DNA of 64,000 nucleotides from NCBI RefSeq assembly GCF_964204645.1, contig NC_134034.1, positions 8,568,962 to 8,632,961 on the forward strand, given 5' to 3'. Below, piece by piece: positions 1 to 58,503 of the stretch; position 1 is the first letter of the stretch, and every line of letters begins with the position of its first letter. The translations under genes were made by a program, and so were the position numbers. Origin of the DNA: Tubulanus polymorphus (lineage: Eukaryota; Animalia; Nemertea). The notes under the pieces are model-generated. The model was not told where the DNA came from and made no database searches. It saw only the letters and a program-made list of their open reading frames with translations.

Positions 1-582
1 AAAGAACAAATGGAAGACAGAAATTTAGCTGACATTCTCAACTATTTGACTAGCGGTATATTACCGATTGATAACAAGGACGACGCAAGAACTGTTCTAC
101 TGTCGGCCGATCAAGAATACACTAAATGATAAGGGTGTATTATATCATATCCCAAGGCCCCCTAAGAACCAGAATGGCGATTACTTCTTATAGCTTGTTG
201 TGCCGGAGTCACTTATATTAGACATTTTAAAGTTCATGCATGACGAGCATATCACAGGTCATTTTGGGGTTCCTAAAACTTATGCGAGAATATACCAGAA
301 TTATTTTTGTAAGAATTTGTATAGGGATGTAAAACACTTTGTAAACAGTTGCCCTGCTTGCAACCAACGTAAGAAACCTAGTAAACCTGCACGTGCTCCA
401 GTCCTGCCTCAGGATATCCCTGATGGACCATTTGTAAAAATTTCCGTAGATTGTGTTGGACCTATTACTAAGTCCGAAGATGGTATGACGCAAATTGTAG
501 TTTTTGTTTGTAACTACAAACGATACTGTGAGGCATTCGCTGTTCCGGATATCACAGCACCTACAATAGCCAATACCTTCTC
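1..582 (+). mobile_element. Ty3/Gypsy pol fragment (integrase zinc finger and start of catalytic core)
   Basis: ORF 200..619: HDEHITGHFG...CPAC (HHCC), then PF.KISVDCVGP and YCEAFAVPD; similarity stops near 582 where the next element begins. Confidence 0.85.
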
Positions 583-599
583 TCTATTCTTGTCTCCTG

Positions 600-2310
600 G
601 CGGGTTGTACCTTACATGAAACTACAAGAAACACACAATCTAAGAATAATGGAAATGATGAAAACGATGATTGAGATATTGAATAAGTATAATTTTTCAA
701 CATACCGATGGAAAAATTCCAACTGACACATTGCATCAGATGGATATTGAATATTCAGATTGAAGTATAAAGCAAATAAGCCCTTAAGAGCATTCATATA
801 TTCTCGCGTTTGAAGAATGACAGTACCGTCGACACTTCACATGTACTGAACCGTGTTACCTCCCAAAGCTGGAATTTAAAAAAAAACCGATTCTGAGGCA
901 TAATCCTGAATTCAATTTCAAAATCAGAGCTCCTTTCTCACTTACTTAGCTGGATTATCAATGGATTGGCTGAGAGTGTTTCGTCAAAGTCTTCTGCTAT
1001 CGCGTGTACTTTCCTGATTACACTGGTGACTTTTTCTTTGAATGCCATTGCGAGTAAAGGTAGTGCAGAATGAATTCCATCAAATTCAAAATCATTGATA
1101 CCATTGACATAAGTTTTCTTTAGATACGCATACAAAGACCTACTCCTTGCGAGTACGTTTTCTTCCATGTTTTTGAAGTCAACACGTGTAATGTATTTGC
1201 AATATTTAAAAAATAGGGAAGTTCAAACAAATGTGGCCATTTGCATTTCAAAGCTGTAGTTGGCATGCTAACCTTGATATCAGCTTTTATAAGGTCAAAA
1301 GATTCAGTTATTAGTTGTTCTACGACGTTTGAAATTTTTTCTCCATCATTGTAGAGATGAGATAGTTTTAGTCGCTTTTCATCGACGATAACATGACTTT
1401 CCAGTGGTTCGCGTTTTCGTTTAGAACAAGAACTACGGTTTTCGTTATCACGATGATTTTCCAATGACCTTATTTTGCTCTCTTGTCCGTCAGAAATAAG
1501 TTGGTCTCCTAAGAAGAGGGAAAATGCCTTGTCATATTTTGCAACTAGCTGCGCAGCAATTTTTTTTAAATCTTTCCTCCCAGGCTTCTCGTCGTTTTTT
1601 TCTGGTTTTAAGATCGTCCCATAAAATTCGCATCAGATGAGAACGATCTCTCGATGACGGTCTCGCCCCGGCAGCTAGTATTGTGATGCCTTGGGGTATC
1701 TTGTGCCAGGGAATCGTGTATAGTGATTATCTTCACATGTAGGTTCTTGAACAGCGTATCACTCGTTGAAGCCAGGGATATAGAGCAACTGGGATCCTGG
1801 TACTCTACAATGAAAATATGAGATGAAATAACTTCTTAATCAATCATTTTTCATCTTTGACCGATAAGACTTATTAAATCTGAATGAATAATCCATCAAA
1901 TAGATGGAATTCTTTTTCAACTTGCCTAATAGTCCGAGTTTACTATTCATCGTGCAGAACTGAAAAACATCCTCGTCTAGTTCTACTTCTTCGTCTACCA
2001 GACATATTTACACATCTTCTGAATGGATCCGAACTTTCTTAGCAACTAGCAAAATATTCATAGGAAATGATTGAATACTTTCATTTCAAAATAAATACCA
2101 CATTATTTTTGTATAGCTACAAAAATAGCTTTATAAACTTACCATTAACAACAAATTCACCATAACAGGTACCCCGTCTAACCGCAATAGTCCTTTCCTT
2201 TACCATCAATTTTAGGAAATCTCCATTCGCTAATGCACTGCATACGACCTAAAAGTCAAAATATACAATACACTACTTGTTTTAAGAAGAATTGAGCTCA
2301 GAACATTCAT
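600..2310 (-). pseudogene. EnSpm/CACTA-associated accessory gene (SAMD3-like), multi-exon, disrupted
   Basis: ORFs 612..797, 938..1168 and 1120..1464 (LKCKWPHLF; FALYFNLNIQYP..LEFFHRY) lie directly downstream of the EnSpm-like transposase on the same strand. Confidence 0.55.
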
Positions 2311-2434
2311 GATGGACGTACCCGCACATCTTCCGTTTTGGCAGTCTTTGAATCATTTTTATCCTCTGTCCAATATGTGTACGTATAGTTTGTATCGAAT
2401 GGTTCGCCAAATGGCAAAGTCCAAAATATAATTC

Positions 2435-3639
2435 CTAGTACATGTATGTAGACACCGCATGCTTCAATGTAACCACTTCTGTATCACCAGACATTATGTA
2501 AGAAGGTAGTGTGTGATAATCCAACAAACCATCAATTCTTACACAGCTGAGCTTATCGGTTGAGTCTAGTTTGTGTACCCCGAATCGACGAATGTAAATG
2601 GTGTTTGTTTTCTTAACAATACAATAGGGTTCATTATTTTCTTTTACGAGCAAAAGAATGATTTTTCCAAGCACAATACCTTTCTCCGATGACGATTCCA
2701 AAACTACATACATGTCATGTTTGTATAAGGTGTTATTATATATAATTTCATTGCTAACAGAGCATATGCTTGTATTTGGTATCTTCAATCGAACACATTG
2801 CACAATTTCCCGACTATACAATGTTTCTGAAAAAGCTACAGTTTTCTCATAGGTTAAGGCCTGGCCAAACAAATTGCTTGCAGAATAGTAGGATTGCAGA
2901 AATTGGTGTTTCTCAGATAATGTCAGCAAAATATTCTTAAAATTCAGTGCACGCCGAGCAACTTTTTTGAAATATGAGTGCTTCGACTCCATGGGAATTG
3001 TCTACACTCGAATTAACGGTCCAAACTGAAGCGTCAACGTGGTGTTATGCGATAAGAAGTGGTGTTTTGGTTTAATTCGACTTTCAGCAAAGTATTGTAT
3101 TCTTAATTCGATGTAATCACGAATTAGTGTATCCATTATATCAATCATATCATGGTTTAGGCAAGGAGCACATATAATTTCAACAACCTCCTTCAACGAA
3201 ATGAACAGTTGCCAAATTTTGTCTGTCCAATCAATTATAGAACTTTCTAAGATAATGGGTAAATGGCGCAAAAGCACCCAATTTTGGATTGCACCTCCTG
3301 ATATCTTAAGACCTTCCTTTTTATTCCATGATATTGCTGGACGGTCAAGCGCATCGTTGCCCTTTATTTAAAGCTTTTAATTTTTCTTAACAAATCTACA
3401 ACTTTAAACCATTTTTTCTTGACGAGATCTAAAATCAATTTAAGGTCATAAACGATAATGCCTTCAAATACGTCGTGCGCCAGACATGGACGAAGACCAG
3501 GGTTACAAACATGATAATATTCTAGACTATTCAAAACAGAATTCACTTTAATTCCCTGGTGAAAGACCAAATCTCCATCCTTCAATATTTCAACGGAGGC
3601 ATTATAATTAGCAGACGTTCTTTCTGGTCTTTTTGTCAT
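2435..3639 (-). mobile_element. EnSpm/CACTA (CMC)-like transposase, C-terminal part, frameshifted
   Basis: Motifs CLAHDVFEG, KPKHHF..H, QFGPL and ESKHSYFK...NFKNILLTLSEKHQ across ORFs 3364..3639, 3002..3277 and 2435..2992. Confidence 0.7.
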
Positions 3640-3985
3640 ACTTCAGGATGACGTTCATGCGGTTCAGGATGTACAAAGTTGGTATCACTGCTGACGTTGA
3701 AAAAGCCTCCTTACAGGTTGCTTTAGATGAATCCCAGAGAGATGTGACACGATTTTTTTGGTTGAAAGACCCACAGATACATGATTTAGAAGATAACATA
3801 CAGTGTTATAGATTCTGTCGTGTCCCTTTGGGGGTTATATCAAGTTCGTTTATCCTGGCAGTCGTGATTGATCATCACATGAAAATGGTTAACAGTGAGA
3901 TGTCTAAGAAGATAAGAGAAAATATGTATGTCGATAACTTGGTAACAGGAGCTGATAACATAGATGACGCACGGCTCTACAGCTC
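3640..3985 (+). mobile_element. BEL/Pao retrotransposon reverse transcriptase fragment
   Basis: ADVEKA.LQV.L...RD.TRFFW, YRFCRVP.G and YVDNL motifs in ORF 3633..4064; cut off near 3985. Confidence 0.88.
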
Positions 3986-5870
3986 TTCTACGAAGTTTTT
4001 CATCATCAAAGGGTTTCATTTTTCCGGTCATGAATTCTGCTGTGCTGGTACTTGCCCTTTGTAGAAATTGAATTAATTCAGTGATGTATTTTGTAATTTC
4101 TAATATATGAATCTGTCTGTCTTCGATTACCCTCCAAAGGGGAGCAGTTACTAGTTTGCTGATCAATCCTAAGGCTTTGCAGCCTGCGATGTTTTCGTTG
4201 ATTTTGAGATCAGCGAGGACAGATCTTTGGAGTCGATTTTTTGAGCCGGTTGATTGAAGATATTCAGTCATCTTTTTGTGTAGGAAATACACAAAACCTC
4301 CATTGAAGAATATAATATTGAATCTGTTGCCTCTAAATGGTACTATAGGTATTGACCGCATTCCGTTGTCTTTTAAGAAATCATCTACGAAAATCTTGAA
4401 TTGCCCATACGCCCCAGACTTCTCATCTCCGCCACGAGAAAAAGCTTTCGCTGCTGTCCGTATTAAACGGATGACTCCAGGTTCATTTGGTTGGATTATT
4501 TGTGGGCCACATGTTAATTTATCTGGTGTTTTGGTATTTTCCAGTTCCATGATTGTTGTTTGAGTGACTTCAGCAACTTGAACAAAGCTGTGAAGTCCAC
4601 AGAAGAAATTGTTTAGAGTTTCGATCGGTTTTCTGTCATCCGATGAAAGAGAATCCAAGTTACTGACCACGACAGGTAAAATATTCTTCCGGTAATTTTC
4701 TAGAAGTTCATGCCATTTTAATCTGTTGCTGCTCTATCAGACATAGTATTCCTGATGTTACTTAATACTAGTTTTCCAGCGTTGTTGTTGGTTGCCGTAC
4801 TCTGATCGTCTATATCTTGGAGGACTCCTTGGAATGCATAAAATGTGTCATTGGCTGATTTTGTTGCCAGGTCTCTGACACCAAGAACCCAGTATCGTTG
4901 ATCAGAGTCAGTTGCGTGATATCCGATATACTTTTCTCCAAATTTTGATGTTTCATCCGAGTACAGGGTAGTTTGAGATTTAGTCGAGAATTCTTCGCTT
5001 AGCTGTTTTTGTGAGAGCCCGAGTCGTTCAATGTTCATATTTCGAATTGTTTTTTTCAGATGGTAATTTTGATGGAGTTTTATCGATGAATTGTAAACAG
5101 GCGGTTATGACTGGTCCGATATGGGTGATACCTACATGTTCCTTCAATAGTTTGTATATCAGTTGCCGAAATTTGGATGAATAGCAGTTACTTTCCAGAT
5201 CGTATGTTTTGACTGTGTCTTCATTGAATTCTTTGATTTGATCTTCTAGTTTCTTGATTTTTTCCGCGAGCTGTAAATTTTCTTCTTTCAGTTTTTCATT
5301 TTCTGATATAGCATTATCGAGGATTTCGTTTTGTATGATTGGAACAGTTGTTTCATTCGCATTCTTTGTATATTTACAACGATAGTATTGTTCCCGTGCG
5401 GCTGTTCTTTTTAGGGTTGACTTAGTTGACTGTAATCTGTATGTTAGGGACTTGTTTTCGTTTCCATAGATAGTGAGTTTCTTAACTGATTCATTTAGTT
5501 TCTCCTGTGTATTCAAACTTGATTGACGGGTTGAACATGGTAAGACGTTTTCTGATGATGACAGAGTGGTTGATGATGGGGATGATGCTGATGGGGCTAT
5601 ACCTGATGTGGTTGACGCTGATGGTGGAAGTTTGAATTCTTTTTCTAACCAGTCTTCATACTCTAATTGATTTCCGACGCGATGTAAACTTTTTGCTCTG
5701 TCACTGTTCGATTTTATTAGTCTACGAATGGACGATTCTAAACTCTTGGTAAAACACTGGTTAGCAGATGGAATCGTGTTCTGAATGTACAGTAGTGTAG
5801 TGTTGATTTTGCCATGATCTTTATAATGTTTGATAATGTCGTGAATTTTCAAAGCACGACCGGTATCCAT
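3985..5870 (-). pseudogene. DDE transposase-like gene with CxxH motif (hAT/MULE/P/Kolobok-type fold), frameshifted and 3'-truncated
   Basis: ORFs 5028..5897, 4718..5038 and 3840..4670: N-terminal coiled coil, then LYSDETSK, MSDRAAT and FFCGLH. The final catalytic E is not seen. Possible upstream exon with donor GTGAGT near 6493. Confidence 0.55.
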
Positions 5871-9600: not shown

Positions 9601-10368
9601 TCCTGAAACAAGCAGAAGAAAACATGAGCAAAATCAAAGATATAGAAATTCCATCAATAAAAGTACTATTAAATCCGAGAAGAATCAAGCTTAACCAAAT
9701 ACATAAGGACATAACCTTAGAGATGGGACCGATACAAAAAGATCTAAATGAGAATCTTAAAAAGATAGGAGTTGACAGACAGGCATATCACTCGAATAGC
9801 TTTGTAGGAAACCATGTACACAAGTTGTTTAAAAAGGATGAGGAAAATGGAATTAACTATCCACAAATACTATTATCCTGTCTCAACCATTATCCGAATG
9901 ACCGAAAGTTATTTTCGGATCTCTTCGAGAAGTTTCAAGATATTTATCATGTATATTCAGCTTGTCGGTTTTTGTGCGAACCTGAAATAGAACATGTAGT
10001 GAACAGTATTCATGAATTTGGTACATGGTTTCCTCAAAATTTCCCCACGGCGAATATAACTCCCAAATTGCATGTTTTGATCTATCACGTGCCTGAATTC
10101 ACCCAAACATGTCATTGGGGCTCATTGGAGAGCAGGGGCTTGAAAGCAAGCATGCGAGTATGAACCAAGATGCTAGAATCTATTCCTGTTTGCGGAACAA
10201 AGTAGTCCGCACAAAATTAATGTTTTTGAAGGTCTCTACTCAACAAAATCACTGCACTTACACAAAATAATCCGAAAGTGTAACTGTGGGGGATTCTTCA
10301 AGAAAATGTCACCATCGAGTAAAACACGAACTTGCCAGAAATGTAGCAATGTCAGTGATCAGGTTTAA
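6669..10368 (+). pseudogene. RAG1/Transib/Chapaev-like DDE transposase with internal PHD finger (copy 1), intron-containing and disrupted
   Basis: IGVDKGGGS (D1), GDLH..CQMMGH..ASTYPCLWC (D2 plus CxxC), VPPGLHISLGLG, C4HC3 finger, QAYHSNSFVGNH, ITPKLHVLIYHVPEF, GEQGLES (E), C-terminal CxCGG..CxxC. Several stops and frameshifts; the 5' exons are uncertain. Confidence 0.75.
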
Positions 10369-10491
10369 CCTACAATGAGAAATATTTCTTCATGAGCTGA
10401 ATATGCATTGATATAAGTTTATTCATCATACTTGTTATAATGTTTTAAAAACTTAAAATGCCGAAAATTTTGAGGAACTGTACCTTCGAAG

Positions 10492-11632
10492 CCGGTGTTG
10501 TCATATCGCGGAAAGACGGAATCGCGGAATTTTCCAAAAACGCGGAATTTCTTCATTTTTACTTTAAATAGAAAACGGGTTTTCCCACGGGGATACCCAC
10601 TGTCGGACAGGGCATCGGACCCAGGTTTTCAACGCCGGGAATTAGTATTTGATAATTTATTATATCTCCAGTCAACAACTTAACCATACTGTTCCAAATA
10701 ATGTAGAACCTGGGCAATACGTGCTTTGCGAATTCAGTGATACAGAGTATCGCTGCATTAACTGAAGGAATACAAATCGATGGTACGTAAACGTAGGATT
10801 TGTGATGACACCATGGGTCATTCTCCAGGACTCAGTTCCGAGTTAAGATTTGACTCTGGTCTCTGGATTTAAAACATTGGAAATGAATTGATTCTAAGTA
10901 ACTCAGAGTTAACTCACAACTGTGGAACTGGATCGATGTCAGACGAAAATAAATAGACATTATGTATATTTCATTCTGGCTTAGGATTGTTCATGCGTGT
11001 TGTGTGTCTACATTGTTGTTATAAGGGAATGTGGTTTATCTTTTAGAATTAAATGATATGAAAGATTATAAAATGGTTTCGTTAATGTTTACTTTTAATG
11101 TTTACTTTGTGACTGCTATAACATATGTTCCTATGCTGATTATTTGGATCAAAAGAATCTTATTGGTACCGGTACTGGACGAATTTGACGAAGGAATTTG
11201 AACCGGTACTTGTTTGGTCGTAGGGTTTCATGTTTGCAACCATCTACAACTACGGTCCGACACCGCGAACGTGCTCAATATTTATCTGATAATATTCGTT
11301 TCTGAAGTTCTCAAAAAGTCGATGAACTTCGATAACCGAAGTTTGCCTAGTAGAAATAGACATTAGGTGCCTGGTCTCTTTCACCCCACTTGATTCTGAC
11401 TTCTTCTACAGGTGGCAGCCAGTCAACGGTATCGTAATATAATAATTCCATATAAAATTGCCTGCAAATAATGGGATTCGAACCTAACTCGTTGCATCGA
11501 TCGGTCCGGTGCCCTGTCCGACAGTGGGTATCCCCGTGGGAAAATCCGTTTACTATTTAAAGTAAAAATGAAGAAATTCCGCGTTTTTGGAAAATTCCGC
11601 GATTCCGTCTTTCCGCGATATGACAACACCTG
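10492..11632. mobile_element. Non-autonomous TIR element (MITE, hAT-like ends)
   Basis: ~130-bp TIRs 10492-10621 and ~11502-11632 (C[A/C]GGTGTTGTCATATCGCGGAAAGACGG...); non-coding interior; TSD only partly matched (TTCGAAG / TTTTAAG). Confidence 0.85.
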
Positions 11633-16903: not shown

Positions 16904-22122
<5,219 letters not shown>

Positions 22123-45258: not shown

Positions 45259-47569
45259 TCGCAAACACAATGATACAATAAAAATTTTTCCAATCCAAAC
45301 CTTCAAAGAAGATATTAAAAAATGCAAAAATATTACACCGACCACGACTTTACCATATACCCTTAATATCTTAAGCCGAAACACATATGAAATATACATC
45401 ATAGCTATGTACAAAAGGTATAGCATCGATTCTATCAAACAGTCGTCTCAAGACCGACACACAACTCTACTATCTAGTTATTTAACCTGTCCAAATATAT
45501 ATTACATTGCTATATGTCTTATTTTTTGCGTGCTTATACACACATGTCCATGTATGTGTATGCATTTCCATGACAACCGACAAGACTACCTCTATCGAAA
45601 CCTGGCCCGACACACACGCTTTTAAAGAATACACAAATTCGAGTTGTATACAACAGGCTGACTCGTACTACGACAACGGTTACCCGACACCCAAGCAGCA
45701 AAAACGACTGTCAGACATCCTACAATTCAAGACTAAGCATAAAGTAGATTGATACGTAATGATCTTTCAAAGGCAAATATATACATATACATGTATATAG
45801 AAATGTGTATATCAGTACATGCATATGTACATGTATACCCCTCTTAAAAATGGAGTTCAAGATAGAAAAGCCAACTATTAGAAACCCGAATATATGCAGA
45901 TATAAACTATATGTATACACCGCTCCGATCTCTTACATACAAGGAGTGCATCAAATAATTGCTTCTGCGTAAGCGATCCGCCAAAATCGTCCTTTGTATT
46001 CCCCTAGTCTATTGCATTTTTATGTATATTATATTTATATGAAGGAAAGAGTTTAACGGCTTTTCCATTCTTTAATCGCTTCTACGAGGATATTTTTTAA
46101 CCATAAACTGTCAGATATCTGACAGTCTATCACCTCATAGATGATCGCCGTCACGCCGTCTTTAAAAATCGGAAAATGTACTATTTGTATCTGTGTATAT
46201 ATGTAAAGCATAAAGCTCTACATTCTAGACGAATACTTTTAATTTGAAATTTAAAATCACTCTCCCCACCCCATGCATATACCGGTACCCCCAGTAGACA
46301 CACGAGTGTAAAGTCGCACCACCCGGATTTCCATCGCCCCGACATTGACGACGAAAATCTATGCAATGTTTGGTCTACATGGTGCACCGCTTACATACTA
46401 CAGCTAGAGCATGGATCGGATAGCATATCCCAGCTCTTTTCTCTATATGAAACTTCTTACAGATCATATCAGATCCAAACTTGGAGTAACCCACTCCAAG
46501 ATCCAATGCACTCCATAAATTCAAGCTACTAGTTCTGCTTAATAAACTATGATTCCAGCTGTTCCCCCTCCAACTTACATTAAGAGCACATGGTTGTTAG
46601 AGTGTGTACTGCTGTGTCAAATAGCTACACACCATATAATACCCAATTTTTTCATATGTGGAAACCTCCCCTTTAAATCACCGTTGCCTAGATAGAAAAC
46701 TTTCGCATTAGACATAAACCGATCAAAATGGCATTAAACACTGTGCAGATCCATGGCGTGTGATGCTACAGCTACACACCATGGATCAATACTATATGAT
46801 ATCTACACCTTATACTCCAGATTGTACATAATATGCATACCCAAGGCAGTGACCCATCGAGCAACAGAGAAACAGCCTCAGTCTCCTATATGACCAAACC
46901 CTGTATATATCTATACTATAAGCGGCTAGGCGTCTCAACTTTGTAATGCGTAATCTCCGTTCGTGTGGCTTCGATTACCCGTTGAGTGGTATGGATTGAA
47001 AGAGGGTGGTCTGATCTGTGTTTTAAAAATCGATTTCGTGACAATACGATAAAGTTTAGGTAGACTTTGGGACCATTTAAGTTTGGAAGCTCCACGTGTC
47101 GTCACTGCGCGCGATGATCGAAACAAACATTTGAGCGTCAGCTGTTGCTCGGTTTTTGTATAGCGTGCTTGACTTCAGAGACGCTGATGACCTCAATTCA
47201 TCTCTCTGCCCACAGAGACGCGGGTCACCTCGCGGGCAATCTAATGGTAGAGATTACTGCGATGTGAGCATCGGCTGTTGCTGGGTTTTCTACAGAAACG
47301 TAGGTGACCTCAATTCGCCTCTGCCTGGGGAATTTAATAGTGGAGATTACTGTATGTATTCAGACTCACCACAGCGCCACTTCTTTAACAAAGAAAAGCG
47401 TGCCAATCCATTCTTCTAAGAATCACCGAGATTTAATAGCCTGATTTGTCATTGTCGTCGGATTGAAAGGTATGCAAAAGCGTCATTCATTGACTGTTAC
47501 ACGATGTCGTTGGGTCTTTAGAAGTCATGTTAAAAAACGTATTCAATTGTTTGGAATGTAAATTGAAAC

Positions 47570-48836: not shown

Positions 48837-50422
48837 ATGCCTCGGAAGATATCAGCTTTGGGTAGAAGCACCCCCAAAACAAAACGTGTCCAGCGTCATC
48901 GTTCGGCTACAAATGAATCAAACCTGGAAGAACAAGCTAATGTTGACAATATAATTCATACATGTGAACTCATAACACTTTATCCCATGCCTGTTTGCAG
49001 CACACAGTATGTAGATGGTCGTTCTCACAACAATATGGCTGTGGGCAAAATTATAAAACAGTGCTGTGGCAATGGTAAAGTAGCTCCACCAGTTTATCCA
49101 ACACCACCTCAGTATTTAAGTGACTTGATAACTGGAAAGCTGTCATTGTCAAATCATTTTTTGCACAACATTCGTACCTATAATACAGCTTTCCAAATGA
49201 CAAGTTTTAGGTGCAAAGTATCTCGACAGACAGGTTGGAACCCCTCATTTGTTGTTCAAGGTCAGATATGCCATCGTATTGGCAGTTTACACCCCACCCC
49301 TGGTGAAACACCTAAATTTCTTCAACTATACTTTCTGGATAATTTGACTCATACAGTCATGACCCGCCATAGTCTTTCAGACATTTTGGACAAATCTGTC
49401 CTAAAATCACTCAATGAAATGCTTCATGCCTGTAATACTTAAGTATCATCTCCTAAAACTGCATCAGAAATTATTGATAGTGCTCCAATTCCTAACCTCG
49501 ATACAACAAACAAGTAAGCAGTGAAATAGGTATATTAATGCCAAACGAGCCAACTGGCAGTAGAGATATTGTCCTAACATACAAGGATGGACCACTTCAA
49601 AGAATATCGGAGCTGCACAGATCGTACGATGCGCTGCATTATCCATTGTTATTCCCTTTCGGCACTGATGGCTACAGCATATACCTTCAGAATACACATG
49701 GCAAGAAGATTACTCAGCAATAGTTTTACTGCTACCAGTTTATGTATCGTCAACCTGACATCTCACCTACACTTTTGCAGGAGGCTTTTTCAACAGTTCA
49801 TAGTTGATGCCTACTGCAGGATGGAGACTGAACGTTTAAATTATATACGCCGAGAACAACGGTCACTGCGTACTGATTGCTACAATTCACTCCGTGACAG
49901 CATATCATCATCCGATTCTGATCCACAGTGTTTAGGGCAACGCATTATACTTCCCTCTTCATTAATTGGGAGCTCACGATATATGCATGAAAAACAGCAA
50001 GATACTGTAACCTATGTACGCCTATTCGGTCGCCTAGACCTCTTCATAACATCAACCACAAATCCAAAATGGGCAGAAATTACAGACAATCTTCCCTCAA
50101 ATCAGCCATCGGCTGATCCTACTGACATTGTTACACGGGTCTTTCATTTAAAACTGAAAAAAAACTTATAAAATGTCTACGAAATGGTGCATTTGGTTCC
50201 GTTAAAGCATGGCTTTACAGCATTGAATTTCAAAAAAGGGGTTTGCCTCACGTCCTACTGTGGCTGTACAATGACAGCAAAGACCCGATGACATTGACTT
50301 ATTTGTGAGTGCCGAAATCCCTTCACCTGATGAAGAGCCCCATTTGCACAACTTGGTTAAAACACACATGGTACATGGGCCATGTGGTGTCACAAACCCA
50401 AAATCGCCCTGCATGAAAGATG
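48837..50422 (+). mobile_element. Helitron RepHel N-terminal/Rep fragment, frameshifted and truncated
   Basis: CCGNGKV, NIRTYN.AF..TS, YDALHYPLLFP.G, LFQQFIVD, ILPSS..GS.RYM, T.NPKW.EI, IEFQKRGLPH and HGPCG motifs. Confidence 0.9.
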
Positions 50423-52480: not shown

Positions 52481-52524
52481 TCGAGACACCACTCATCACC
52501 ACAAGTAATTTTTTCCCCTAATAA

Positions 52525-52851
52525 ATGGGAGATAGAAAAGCATTCTTAGCAACAATAAATAACAGAATTAAACCAGCAAAAAAACAATTTGAAATAAAAA
52601 AGTTAGTTGATGTTACAAAAGAAATTGAACATAAAATATTGAAATTAGAAAAGATAAAAACTAAATATGGAGAGAAAGTATCAGCTAATTTAAGCTACTG
52701 TAATGTTAGTACATCGCGAGAATTTAAAGTATTTTTACCCGATAAATGGGTTTCATTGAGTACAGAGGAATTGAAAGATTTAGAAGGATTTAAAATAATC
52801 TATCATGGGAAAAATGAAGACGGTCATCATGATTTAGAAATTGTTGATTAA
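52525..52851 (+). CDS. Small viral hypothetical protein
   Basis: Intact 108-aa ORF with ATAAATG start and the same composition as the neighbouring viral genes. Confidence 0.55.
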   Translation: MGDRKAFLATINNRIKPAKKQFEIKKLVDVTKEIEHKILKLEKIKTKYGEKVSANLSYCNVSTSREFKVFLPDKWVSLSTEELKDLEGFKIIYHGKNEDGHHDLEIVD

Positions 52852-53134
52852 ATAAGAAATAAAAATAATGAATATCTAGAATCCAAAATGACCTTAATCG
52901 TTTTACGAACAACTACAATCATACAGTCAAACATCTGTTACATGTTATTATAAGAGAGTGCTTCATTTGAATATTGATCAATCAAACAGGTGTTGCACAA
53001 CATTGTTGTTATATTGGATAGCTAGCAGTTATATAATAAGCACGCAGTACATACAACACACACAGGACAGGAGGATAGTCATTCTCTCTCGTGATTAAAA
53101 GGAATATTTCAATGTTTTTACGGTAAGTTTTAGC

Positions 53135-53423
53135 AAAACCACCCGACCTGACTCGCAGAGTTTTTAGGGGATAAGTGTCCCGTTATTGAGAGGCGCCACG
53201 AGATACCTATCCCCAAGCATTTCTACTTACACCCCTGTGACCCACACCTCGCCAATTCTCCTTCAATGGTTGACAGGAAACACATTATATTAAAGGCGCC
53301 TAATGCATTTCCTATCAACCCCTTACCCCCGAAAGGAGGATCGAAAGTCGAAACTGAAGGAGAACCACGGAGGGTGGACAAAGGTGCATTTTCGAAATGC
53401 CCCTGCAAGCCAAGCCCGGCGGC
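53135..53423 (-). ncRNA. Candidate Pol III-transcribed structured RNA (~290 nt) in the adintovirus intergenic region
   Basis: TATATAA 31 nt upstream; first T4 run falls right after the terminal stem; 23-, 20- and 17-bp stems with 12 G-U pairs on this strand; two GGCGCC loops. Confidence 0.6.
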
Positions 53424-53518
53424 ACTCCAGTGGTTGAATGAATTGCCTTATATACTTAGCTAAAACACCTAAGTAAATGTTGCTGGTGCTAAAAAATTGT
53501 GAAATTTGAAATTATGAA

Positions 53519-54109
53519 TTATTCCGAATGAAAAGAATATAAGAATGAAAACTGATAAATGAATTGTTCATTTATTATAGAAATATTTTTACTTTCAATA
53601 TTCGAAAATGTTATAACTCCAGTTGATAATAATGTCATAAATCCACCTAATTGAAATGATAAATATCCAATCCGTTTATTTAATTCAGTCATAACTAAAT
53701 AATCATTTTTTAAATCGGAATATAATCGATTTTCATCTTCAATTGGAAGTATATAATTACATAATTTACTATAACCTTTTACTACATTTTCTGATATCGC
53801 GTCATTAATTCTAGCTGTTCTCGCGGCTTCATAAATCTTAAATAATCTAATAATTTCATCTGATTTCATTGTATCTAATTCATTATAAGTTAAATTTTTA
53901 CCGACAAAATTTTTACATTTTCCAGATGCTATTAATATTTCTAATTGATGTTTACAGTAAAGATAATATTCATAATTATTATTTGTTGTAACATTATTTA
54001 AAGCACCATCATCTGGAATTAATTTGTTTTCTGTTATTCCTAAATCATCTAAAGTATTTTCAATTGGAACATCACCATTTTTTGATTTTATTTTCTTTTC
54101 ACCTACCAT
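53519..54109 (-). CDS. Viral hypothetical protein with hydrophobic C-terminus
   Basis: Intact 196-aa ORF in the viral gene array. Confidence 0.6.
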   Translation of the reverse strand: MVGEKKIKSKNGDVPIENTLDDLGITENKLIPDDGALNNVTTNNNYEYYLYCKHQLEILIASGKCKNFVGKNLTYNELDTMKSDEIIRLFKIYEAARTARINDAISENVVKGYSKLCNYILPIEDENRLYSDLKNDYLVMTELNKRIGYLSFQLGGFMTLLSTGVITFSNIESKNISIINEQFIYQFSFLYSFHSE

Positions 54110-54129
54110 TTATATAACAAAAAAATTAG

Positions 54130-54414
54130 TTGTGATGTTGCAACTAGAATTCAACTAGAATGTAACAAGAATTCAACTAGATTAACAAGCTAGTTGAAAT
54201 ATTGTTACTTTTTTTTATTTCTTGTTAAATCTAGTTGATTTTTGTTCCAACTACCAATAACTAGAATTCAACTAGAATGTAACTAGAATTAAACTAGATA
54301 AACAAGCTAGTTACAATATTGTTAAAATCTAGTTGATTTTTGTTACAACTACCAATAACTAGAATTCAACTAGAATGTAACTAGAATTCAACTAGATTAA
54401 CAAGCTAGTTGAAT
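54130..54414. repeat. Higher-order tandem repeat (AACTAGAATTC / AACTAGAATGT subunits, three ~100-115-bp units)
   Basis: Repeated blocks begin near 54141, 54256 and 54353. Confidence 0.9.
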
Positions 54415-55023
54415 TTAAATAAATTCATATTTAAATGGGTGTTGTAATCTAAATAGTAATTTTGATATTTTAATATTTTTCAACTTATCCATATATTCAT
54501 TATGTAAATCATGTGGAATAATATCATTTTCCTCAAGTGCATTTTTCATCGATTTTCTATCTTTATTGTAGAATAAAACTAGAAATCTAATGTTTTCTCT
54601 AAAGTCTTTAACAATTGAATTATATTTTTGATTTAAAACCAAAGTTGTTATCCCAAAATGTCTCCCAGAGAAAGCTAAATAACATAACTCACTTTCTCTC
54701 ACTTTTGAATCATGTAAATTTGCACAATCATCTATAATGAATAATGTATTTGATCCTTTATAAATATCTATTGCTATTTTAATACAATTATCTAAATTTT
54801 CTTTTACTGTTTTAGGATCTAATATAATAAATTTATTATTTCTAGTAATATTTCTATCATAAGTTTGATTAAATTCATATGTTGGACAAAATAATACTAT
54901 ATTATCAAAATAGTTTTTATAAACAGTTTCTAATAAATTTAATATAAAATAAGTTTTTCCACAATTTGTTACACCAGAAATTAACATATTATGAGGTTCA
55001 AATATAAATAATTCCTTATTCAT
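54415..55023 (-). CDS. A32/FtsK-like DNA packaging ATPase
   Basis: Walker A GVTNCGKT, Walker B LFIIDD, GRHFGI and the downstream Q motif; ORF intact. Confidence 0.9.
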   Translation of the reverse strand: MNKELFIFEPHNMLISGVTNCGKTYFILNLLETVYKNYFDNIVLFCPTYEFNQTYDRNITRNNKFIILDPKTVKENLDNCIKIAIDIYKGSNTLFIIDDCANLHDSKVRESELCYLAFSGRHFGITTLVLNQKYNSIVKDFRENIRFLVLFYNKDRKSMKNALEENDIIPHDLHNEYMDKLKNIKISKLLFRLQHPFKYEFI

Positions 55024-56120
55024 TTATATATTTTTAATTTTACTTGACAATATCCATTCATTGAATTTATCTGGCCATCCAACCCATTTTACTAAAGAAT
55101 ATTTTTTTCTTTTAATAGTTTTTGTTTTTAATACTTTTTCAATTTTATATTCTTGTTCTAGATTTTCGGTAGTTAAACTCAATTCTTCTTCGTAAAAGTA
55201 GCCATCAACTTCTTCACTATCTAAATCTTCTAATTTATAGACATATGGTTTTGTTGTTATTACCTTTTTTATTTTATATATTTCTCTAGTAAAATTTCGA
55301 TCGTATCCTTTGTCAAATATCTTTTTATACTTAGAAATTCTAACATTTTGACCAACTTTAAATTTAGGTTCACCAAAATCATTTACAAGAAATGCTCCAT
55401 ATAAATTATTCCAAACAATTTCAGCATTTTCAGGTTTTCTAGCGTCAATAGGTTTCATTCCAATAGAAGAATGATAAGAATTATTATATCCTTCCATCAA
55501 TTTTGGTAAAACATCAATCCATTTAAAAGTATTATTTGCTGTAAATTATTTCCACATTCTTGTTCTTAATGTTCTATTAAATCGTTCAACAACTGCTGCT
55601 TTATCCGATTTTGTTGAAAAATATTTAATATTATGATTATCTAAGAGTTCACGAACAAGTGAATTATCAAACTCTTTTCCATCATCAAATTGTATTTTTT
55701 CTGGTTTTAGTTTATCATCCGAAAGAAATTTTCTTAAAACATTTGATGTTTGTACAGCATCTTTTCTATAAAGTGGGAAGCTCCATACATAACGACTAAA
55801 ATATCAATTATATTCAATAACCACCAATAATCATCATTATCTTTCTTCATATCAATTAAATCTCCTTGCCCCTGTTGATCTACATAACTTACCATAGTTT
55901 TACGAGTTTTATATTTTCTAACAATTTTTTTATGTGTTGTGTATGTTGGTTGTTCTAACATAAATTCATTTATATCTTTATATTAAACTAAATCTTGTGG
56001 GATTATCTTAACTAATGTACATCTTAACTGTACAGAAGAATAAGCAACCGAACTCTCAGGGTTGTAATATAAATTTCTTAAATATTGTTCTTTAGTATTA
56101 GGAGTTTTTTTACCGCCCAT
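55024..56120 (-). pseudogene. Polinton-type retroviral-like integrase with C-terminal chromodomain, frameshifted
   Basis: LYYNP, Q.DLIDM, QFDDGKEF, AAVVERFNRTL, YNNSYHSSIGMKP, FDKGY and chromo motif YKIEKVL...LVKWVGWPDKFNEWI. Confidence 0.9.
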
Positions 56121-56161
56121 TTATATATCGTTAATTTTAACTTTATATTAACTTTATATTT

Positions 56162-57381
56162 CTAATATTGAATACTATCTAATTGTGAATTCACAATATT
56201 TAATTGTGCGTCAGATATAATATAAATGTGCATTTTGAAATTTTTGTCTCCTCTTTTCTTCGCCATGAATAATTGTATTCCATCTTTAGTGTTCTGTAAT
56301 TTCTTCCCAGAACCATGTAATGAATTATCCTCTGTTGTTCTAAAATCTAACCATAATGCATATTTATTGCCGGTATAATAATCAATTTGATTAATATTAC
56401 AATTTTCAAATGATTTTACTTTTTCATTCATAAAATGTTTTCTAATTTCTGGCCATTGATCAATCATCCTCATTCCTTGACAAAATATTTTATTTGCTAT
56501 TCCTTCAATAGTTATTTCTACTTTTGTTATTTCAGGAGTATAATAATTATCAACCTTTATTGCGCCATTAGAATATGTTGCAATGGTAAAAAATATTAAT
56601 ATACCTTTAATAGATCTTCTTGGGAAGTAAATATTCTCATTAATTATTTCATCATTTGCATTAATAGTTACAGTTTTAAATTTATCAATATAATCATATA
56701 ATAATGAAAATCCTTGATTGTATTGAGTTTGAATTGTGCTAGCAATATTTTCATTAGTTACTGTGTCATATTCTAAACATATATTCGATAATTTATATCC
56801 CATATCTTTAACAACGCTAGATAATACAATTTCATTTACAGGAGCAAATGTTATCTCAAATATAATATCTTCTTGAATTACATATTTATATAAAGGTGCA
56901 TTATTATTTATCAATTCAAAGTCAAATGGAATTTTATATTTGCTTCCATAAATCTTTTTTATCAAATTATCTGTGGCACGAGTTACTATTGCGTCATTAG
57001 CTCCTGATTAATTTATTATGGTTTTCTGATTGGATGCCTTGAAATATCATATTATTTCTATTTTCTTTAGTTAACCCTAAATCTTTATAATGCATAAATA
57101 AATTATAATCATCTAATGAGAAAACTGTTTCTGGACCAATCTTTATAGTTAATTTTTTAATCAAATATCTCCCAACATTATCAACAACATAATTATTATT
57201 ATGACCAATTACTTTTATGAACATAAAAAGTATTTTGTGTTAATCTAGGAATTCTAACATATAAAGTTTCATCGGGATTAATATTTAAAGGATTATGAGT
57301 AATTATATGATGTGATATTTCTGCTTTAATAGCATTAGATATTCTAGAAATCTTAGAAGGACTTATATAACTCCCACTCAT
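56162..57381 (-). pseudogene. Adintovirus/Polinton major capsid protein, frameshifted
   Basis: NPLNINPDETLYVRIP, Y.L.NI.LEYD, PRRSIKGIL and ALWLDFRT..DN.LHGSG motifs, next to the ATPase and integrase. Confidence 0.75.
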
Positions 57382-57419
57382 TTATTTAACAAAAAAATTA
57401 ATTATTTATTTTTTATCAT

Positions 57420-58338
57420 GTTTATTTTTTATTATTTTTTCTTGATATTTTTTGATATCATATTCACTAACCCAAAAATAATAGCACTTACAACTGTAAT
57501 TAAAAATAAAATAGTATGTTCAGCACCAAAGTTAATAATGTTTCCTGCAGATTTCAATATGAAACCAACAATTGATGCAATAATTCCTGGTAAAGCTGCA
57601 GCAGATTTTTTTAGATAATTCCCATAAATATTTTGCTAATTTCTTTAAACCATCCTTAACTTTATCTTGTATAGAATTATTATTATCTGGGGATTTATCC
57701 GGTTTATTGGGAGTAGGAGTAGGAGTAGATTTCAAAGCATTTGATATTGCTAAACCTATTGTTGTAAACAACATAGTTACAGCTGTTAGAATTGAAAGAA
57801 TTGTGATTCCTTCTAATTTAAATAATAATTTTATTCTATCCTTCAATGATATTTTAGAATTTGGTTTTAATAGATATCTTTTAAAAACATCTTTTAATCT
57901 TTTGAAATTATTACCAAATTCTTTTAATAATATATCTCTTTCACCTTTCAGTACTTCTAAATTATCTTTTAAATTATTAATTTCTTTTTTAAAACCTGAT
58001 TCTTTTTGTCTATATTCCATTTTAATTTTTTCTTTAATACTTTTTATATTTAATTTTGAACTTATACCAGTTAAAACACTTGAACTTAATCCTAACACGC
58101 CAATTGATATAGCTAAAGGTGTTAAAGGACTGAATATTGCTAGAAATGTTATTACAGAACTAATTGTAACCGAACCACTTATAATCAAATAATATATAAT
58201 TTAACTTTTTAAATATTTTTTCTTTTTTATCTTTAAGTCACTTTCAAATTCTAATATTTGTTTTTCTAAATATATTTTTAATTTAGTTTTATTTATAACA
58301 TGAGGAATAATATCAATACTATCAACTTTATCTTCCAT
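57420..58338 (-). pseudogene. Viral coiled-coil/multi-hydrophobic (putative membrane-active) protein, frameshifted
   Basis: ORF 57532..58188 has hydrophobic segments, a coiled coil and a PTPTP linker, and continues in another frame as AAALPGIIASIVGFIL...LFLITVVSAII. Confidence 0.55.
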
Positions 58339-58503
58339 TTATTTGGAAAAAAAAACTACTTATTAGTAATTAGTAAATTTATATGCTACAAATATAACAA
58401 TAACTGTTCCACCTAAAATCCAAATTATTTCATATTTCTGTTGTTCTTTACTTGGGGAATAATAATCTGATAATTTAATAATAATCTAATAATTTTTACT
58501 CGA

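Follow-up and report, generated by a model that had tools for sequence, protein, structure and literature searches.

In the window analysed here (the whole stretch of 64,000 nucleotides), the minus strand at 53423-53135 is predicted to encode a 289-nt structured RNA beside the genes of a Polinton/Maverick remnant. Selection very probably maintains the RNA structure of this stretch. From its sequence layout the stretch is probably a Pol III gene, and there is a good likelihood that the RNA is integral to the Polinton family. We tentatively read it as a stand-alone Pol III non-coding RNA gene of that family, whose 289-nt double-stranded product would act as a decoy for the host dsRNA machinery. 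Given the selected structure, the Pol III gene and the Polinton membership, the decoy role itself would have roughly an even chance.

Predicted fold and transcription signals

The first-pass annotation had proposed a structured Pol III RNA whose pairing is kept on one strand only, with folding of both strands against shuffles as a check. Folded as RNA, the minus strand reached -152.2 kcal/mol (z -11.5), a value equalled by 0 of 200 dinucleotide shuffles; the plus strand, 53135-53423, gave -93.9 kcal/mol (z -5.3). The one-sided pairing was borne out, with 20 G-U pairs against 1 A.C mismatch in the whole fold (binomial p 1e-5). Control windows with strand bias gave far weaker folds (z -4.4 and -2.0). 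With DNA parameters, 53423-53135 folded at z -6.8 (minus) and -3.9 (plus). The GC content is 51%, compared with about 25% for the Polinton genes, and no second copy of the stretch lies elsewhere in the 64-kb window. The control with z -4.4 is a strand-biased fold at 46201-46489 (minus strand), 3' of a broken LINE-like element.

The 108 pairs divide into 49 G-C, 39 A-U and 20 G-U, and the two 1x1 mismatches of the fold are a G.G and an A.C. Most of the helices described earlier were recovered: the terminal stem with 15 Watson-Crick pairs, 7 G-U pairs and one mismatch (the G.G), the hairpin 53320-53268 with 20 bp and 3 G-U, the hairpin 53214-53167 with 2 G-U and 1 A.C, and a 10-bp stem (53364-53355 with 53265-53256). 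Nearly all pairs of these helices have a probability above 0.9. Other helices are 11-20 bp long and interrupted by wobble pairs. When 11 nt were added per flank, the flanks remained unpaired in the centroid. The AAGUA-GAAA-UGCUU tetraloop hairpin of the first-pass annotation does not appear in either the MFE or the centroid fold, its bases being paired with RNA positions 24-30 instead (p ~1.0), and three adjacent bases of it differ in one of the subfamilies of copies (subfamily B, below).

Table 1. Features of the predicted RNA and of the surrounding remnant (positions in the window)
Feature	Position	Strand	Remarks
108-aa ORF	52525-52851	+	Shares 73% identity with an ORF of Maverick-type locus L001; lies beyond the 3' end of the RNA and convergent with it
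First T4 run	53135-53138	-	Predicted Pol III terminator; leaves a 3-nt U overhang
Predicted structured RNA	53135-53423	-	289 nt, 108 base pairs; long interrupted rod and three-way junction
Terminal stem, 3' arm	53138-53160	-	
16-bp hairpin (48 nt)	53167-53214	-	14-nt loop, 2 G-U, 1 A.C; pairing preserved in subfamily B
20-bp hairpin (53 nt)	53268-53320	-	13-nt loop, 3 G-U; stacked on a 15-bp stem
Terminal stem (22 bp), 5' arm	53401-53423	-	G53423 is the predicted +1
TATATAA	53448-53454	-	Begins at -31 relative to G53423
Candidate proximal sequence element (PSE)	53473-53489	-	Near -66; from sequence
196-aa Maverick-type ORF	53519-54109	-	3' end missing; 8 homologues, 55-69% identity
Junction in this copy	53564-53568	.	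Homology of the upstream ORF to relatives ends; in other copies both sides have loose ends
A32-like packaging ATPase	54415-55023	-	Pfam Pox_A32, E 2e-13
Retroviral-type integrase with chromodomain	55024-56099	-	In pieces
Probable major capsid protein gene	56162-57378	-	In pieces; Capsid_N E 0.001, below curated cut-off

As described earlier, the TATATAA sits 31 nt before G53423, and the body has seven T3 runs with the earliest T4 at RNA position 286, at the end of the terminal stem. The stem ends thus fall exactly at TATA+31 and at the first T4. In the Maverick stretch, the chance of TATAWAW in a given 9-nt window is p 0.032 and that of a T4 start in a given 7-nt window p 0.059; the chance that a shuffled body is free of T4 is 0.15. 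The joint chance of the TATA, the end T4 and the T4-free body is about 3e-4, as a post hoc product. Long T4-free runs behind a TATA are not in themselves uncommon: 41 of the 431 TATA-like sites have one, many of them in microsatellites. Among those 41, the RNA at 53423-53135 has the lowest folding energy per base.

The internal signals did not stand. Against the consensus sequences in the consulted part of PMC12498455, box A has 2 mismatches at +12, which is chance level, and the B-box-like site of the first-pass annotation has at best 2 mismatches to GGTTCRANYCY, matched or bettered by 134 of 300 shuffles. Since both boxes are at chance level, the promoter looks U6-type and not VA-type. The Pol III layout was therefore upheld in its TATA, G start and terminal T4 and not in its internal B box; together these traits are what a type-3 (U6-like) Pol III gene would show. 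The candidate PSE was picked for a position and a CACC core like those of U6 promoters. Its upstream edge coincides with a cluster of indels between copies, at 53488-53497. A second TATATAA was seen on the plus strand at 53030-53119, convergent with the main RNA; a T5 run follows at a distance of about 85 nt, and the stretch has two small hairpins. The likeness of its upstream region to the main promoter was not significant (p 0.064).

Alternatively, the structure could be a cis-acting export or stability element in a longer transcript made by Pol II, and the TATA and T4 would then be coincidental. The stretch does lie on the same strand as the minus-strand Polinton ORFs and downstream of them. 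However, a minus-strand poly(A)-type hexamer stands at 53576, upstream of the RNA, and none was found between the RNA and 52481. Together with the joint chance of the fold ends given above, this makes the cis-acting reading very unlikely.

The Polinton/Maverick remnant and its relatives

The window is rich in transposons and, judged by its ORFs, of animal type, and the RNA lies in an AT-rich, frameshifted Polinton/Maverick remnant at about 52500-58400. The Polinton-type neighbours named by the first-pass annotation were found: a packaging ATPase of the A32 type, an integrase and a capsid gene, the last with a weak match. Pieces of the capsid gene are 66-81% identical to 415-aa ORFs of three related loci (L001, L003 and L005). 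A type B DNA polymerase, a protease and terminal inverted repeats were not seen in the window, and the remnant is deleted. Adintoviruses are defined by adenovirus-like virion genes together with the class of their PolB, in the part of PMC8502044 consulted.

In this copy the RNA does sit between convergent genes; the adjacency is secondary, since the gene on the 5' side is truncated at about 53564-53568. Homology of the upstream ORF to its relatives stops at 53564 and other copies have loose ends there, so the RNA module is joined to the upstream gene by rearrangement in this copy. Three tandem repeats of 86-98 nt were seen at 54110-54410, between the ATPase gene and the 196-aa ORF, and relatives carry AT-rich repeats or symmetric palindromes beside the ATPase gene. 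Elsewhere in the window, 16904-22122 holds an element with 537-nt inverted arms (94%) and about three 73-nt tandem repeats per arm, and 49578-50171 encodes a Helitron helicase-like N-terminal domain (E 2e-35).

For the 196-aa ORF, 109 candidates yielded 8 homologues, whose alignment led to 8 loci from 436 candidate stretches. All eight are partial (1.1-11.5 kb, 39.7 kb in total) and have capsid, integrase, ATPase and accessory ORFs in common with the remnant of the window (46-81% identity). Conservation in related elements, on which the first-pass annotation had made its proposal depend, was not seen in the parts sequenced: a comparable fold occurs in 0 of the 8 partial loci (best 250-nt windows -38 to -76 kcal/mol), and a GC island like that of the RNA in 0 of the five longest, also partial. 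Another ORF comes next after the end of the 196-aa-ORF gene in all seven loci that reach it. The palindromes in relatives fold alike on both strands (-56/-54 and -61/-60 kcal/mol), unlike the RNA stretch. Locus L001 also carries a deoxynucleoside kinase gene at 10340-10981 (E 2e-31), and L004 a 1241-aa ORF at 337-4062 with a weak endonuclease VII match; PolB motifs were not found in the latter.

The absence of a comparable RNA from the eight partial loci weakens an essential packaging role. U6-type transcripts often remain nuclear, and a nuclear RNA that aids replication or packaging of the element, in the manner of BocaSR or EBER2, would accord with that; an essential part would be expected to be general, no conserved single-stranded motif could be demonstrated, and we consider this reading decidedly unlikely. 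Its precedent, BocaSR, is similar to VA RNAI both in sequence and in predicted structure, but it helps DNA replication and leaves PKR uninhibited (PMC11194592, consulted in part).

In wider searches, Rfam gave no gathering-score match in the window or the eight related loci, with only chance matches around the element (E 1.4-9.4). The RNA itself matches no family at E up to 10 in this search, which the first-pass annotation had proposed as a check. ARAGORN found no tRNA in the window. Protein scans found no relatives among viral contigs, and no relative was found in prokaryote genomes and phage records. Six viral-contig loci retrieved with an 18-nt pattern were rejected as chance, since the match spans only 18-27 nt.

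Copies of the stretch and their pairing changes

Copies were surveyed in DNA contigs of four sequencing runs from the same species (two samples, one study). No RNA run was listed among those with the stretch, and run X5, presumably RNA, touched 3 of 30 bins, all of them away from the RNA; neither result bears on expression. The contigs listed comprise two high-depth subfamilies, A and B, about 19% apart, and low-depth variants. Subfamily A differs little from this copy (4 differences in one contig of 364 nt); subfamily B has 40 differences from it over 212 nt. Depth suggests that the stretch is present in tens of copies, a rough figure relative to the lowest-depth contigs and not a copy number. 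Several contigs match only 53090-53125 and then leave, which marks a module boundary just past the terminator.

The RNA is likely linked to the Polinton. The subfamily A RNA contig and the contigs over Polinton genes have similar depths (621 versus 672 and 554 in run X2; 174 versus 125-264 in run X1), and both subfamilies continue past the terminator to at least 53090 (records 1 and 2 of X1). Among the best 40 of 62 matches, no contig joins the RNA to an ORF of the Polinton. These depths and the common downstream flank argue against the main rival, a U6-type Pol III module (perhaps a captured, diverged host RNA or a hitch-hiker) carried by several DNA elements and not tied to Polintons. Such a module would fit the junction at 53564-53568, the flanks that vary among copies near 53122 and 53482-53500, the lack of a counterpart in the eight related loci and the GC contrast with the Polinton genes. 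Against it, further, stand the lack of a match to any Rfam host family, the single GAUC and the absence of a telomerase template and of a hammerhead core. We regard a travelling module of this kind as unlikely.

Differences between copies were scored by hand against the pair table, among the best 40 of 62 matches. For the 3' hairpin (53167-53214) the list is complete, with all 19 differences of one subfamily B contig present. All five changed pairs of this hairpin in subfamily B stay standard, and one further change lies in the loop (p 0.056 if transitions alone are allowed, 0.011 under the observed spectrum of 23 transitions and 9 transversions). One of these five pairs has a double-sided change, the sole one seen, relative to this copy only. 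The four differences between this copy and subfamily A comprise two that keep a pair, one unpaired position and one that is the A.C mismatch, which this copy alone has. In the 20-bp hairpin of subfamily B, two of the four listed changes pair and two break, unless about four unlisted differences offset them. Over both hairpins, 7 of 9 changes keep pairing (p 0.04 to 0.22). A further 17 stem changes, of which 8 would fit and 9 would not with the partner unchanged, were left unscored because the partner strand lies outside the aligned part. On the covariation that the first-pass annotation proposed to test, the sequence differences are suggestive of pairing kept between copies, which is not formal covariation.

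The excess of G-U pairs could in principle come from strand-biased mutation. Differences that make G-U showed no strand bias over the whole element (81 versus 96, 90 versus 106 and 95 versus 108, unpolarised), so this source was rejected as an explanation of the asymmetry. The same counts, with the 20:1 ratio of G-U to A.C, speak against a feature acting at the DNA level, such as a decayed nested inverted repeat, a MITE, a SINE or a single-stranded DNA hairpin. For a DNA-level origin there are the DNA fold above chance (z -6.8), the multi-copy state and the AT-rich palindromes in related Mavericks. There is, however, no poly(A) tail, neither the A nor the B box exceeds chance, and the TATA region and downstream flank were copied along with the RNA, which is not expected from retroposition. 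We hold a DNA-level feature to be highly improbable. A SINE in particular was rejected on its chance-level internal boxes and on the upstream and downstream flanks common to the high-depth copies.

The arm sequences differ between subfamilies in both arms of the 3' hairpin, in the 3' arm of the 20-bp hairpin and in the 3' arm of the terminal stem. That the arms drift while pairing is kept favours a decoy acting by its shape, rather than a guide precursor. A precursor of miRNAs or siRNAs made by Pol III, with the inner hairpins or terminal stem as Dicer or Drosha substrates, would account for the 53-nt and 48-nt hairpins, their 13-14-nt loops and the 22-bp terminal stem. Pol III-type units with hairpins of pre-miRNA size have viral precedents in BLV, foamy viruses and the MHV68 TMERs (PMC4378190, in the part consulted). 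Here there is no tRNA head and no type 2 promoter, the arms vary unlike conserved guides, and no complementary target was found in the window; a small-RNA precursor is quite unlikely.

Likeness to known RNAs and a possible decoy role

Polintons and adenoviruses are related groups of linear dsDNA viruses. By sequence and predicted fold, the RNA is like adenovirus VA RNA (Rfam RF00102) in how its layout works, and is not a member of the VA family. The likeness lies in a terminal 5'/3' stem of about the length that Dicer cuts, a four-U terminator and inner stems. VA RNA is an abundant Pol III transcript able to block PKR or Dicer. VA RNA, in contrast, is about 160 nt long against a predicted 289 nt here, and it has intragenic A and B boxes where the predicted RNA has none credible and an upstream TATA instead. 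There is also no Rfam model match at E up to 10, and the host context is of invertebrate type. ACCC at 49-52 and GGGU at 181-184 are not paired in the VA register in the MFE fold, and the two motifs occur only in an order opposite to that in VA. With neither a B box nor the tetraloop hairpin supported, VA-family membership is not supported.

EBV EBER1/2 and BocaSR are likewise highly structured viral RNAs with a Pol III layout in non-coding regions (PMC4378190 and PMC11194592, both in part). BocaSR differs in its 140 nt and intragenic type II promoter (PMC11194592, same part), the predicted RNA being about twice as long, and the EBERs differ in that the predicted RNA has no Rfam match to them. 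With the type-3 host RNAs (U6, 7SK, RNase MRP/P and Y RNA), the predicted RNA has in common a purine start, here a G, with a TATA some 30 nt before it, an end in a U tract and a possible PSE. Its 289 nt is about the size of 7SK or MRP. Unlike those RNAs, it has no Rfam match and is multi-copy within a mobile element. A ribozyme or retrozyme was rejected: the CUGANGA motif of the hammerhead core is absent (best 2 mismatches, sense strand) and Rfam was negative. The RNA also lacks a telomerase template motif. For 7SK, whose hallmark is a stem with repeated GAUC HEXIM motifs (PMC8406779, consulted part), the predicted RNA offers a single GAUC and no Rfam match at E up to 10.

In the decoy reading, TBP and SNAPc would bind the TATA at -31 and the putative PSE near -66. 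From the layout of the sequence, Pol III would initiate at G53423 and terminate at the first T4. The ends of the transcript would then pair into the predicted 22-bp stem with its 3-nt U overhang, a VA-like shape that may suit Exportin-5 and Dicer by analogy with VA RNA, which engages Exportin-5 through its terminal stem and single-stranded 3' end and serves as a Dicer decoy (PMC7589676, consulted in part). An abundant, imperfect duplex of this kind could occupy Dicer or dsRNA sensors, and the transcripts of the element would be protected.

The first-pass annotation knew of no equivalent in Polintons or adintoviruses, and none surfaced in the literature searched. At the level of titles and the beginnings of abstracts (supplements may differ), no Pol III or non-coding RNA was reported for these elements, and neither PMC8502044 nor PMC11131425 uses the terms non-coding RNA or polymerase III in its main text. 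The consulted part of PMC4378190 calls viral Pol III RNAs "not widespread".

The predicted RNA would be a discrete molecule, amenable to Northern blot and small-RNA sequencing. If the decoy role is true, these elements would face host RNA defences as replicating viruses do, and the strategy of VA RNA would have had a second origin with a different type of promoter. The broader proposition, that animal Polintons are active viruses making counter-defence RNAs and that a 289-nt dsRNA decoy driven by a U6-type promoter evolved apart from VA RNA, is somewhat unlikely on present grounds. If this counter-defence reading is true, the RNA would constitute a family of its own, new to science, and would suppress RNA silencing or dsRNA sensing in invertebrates.
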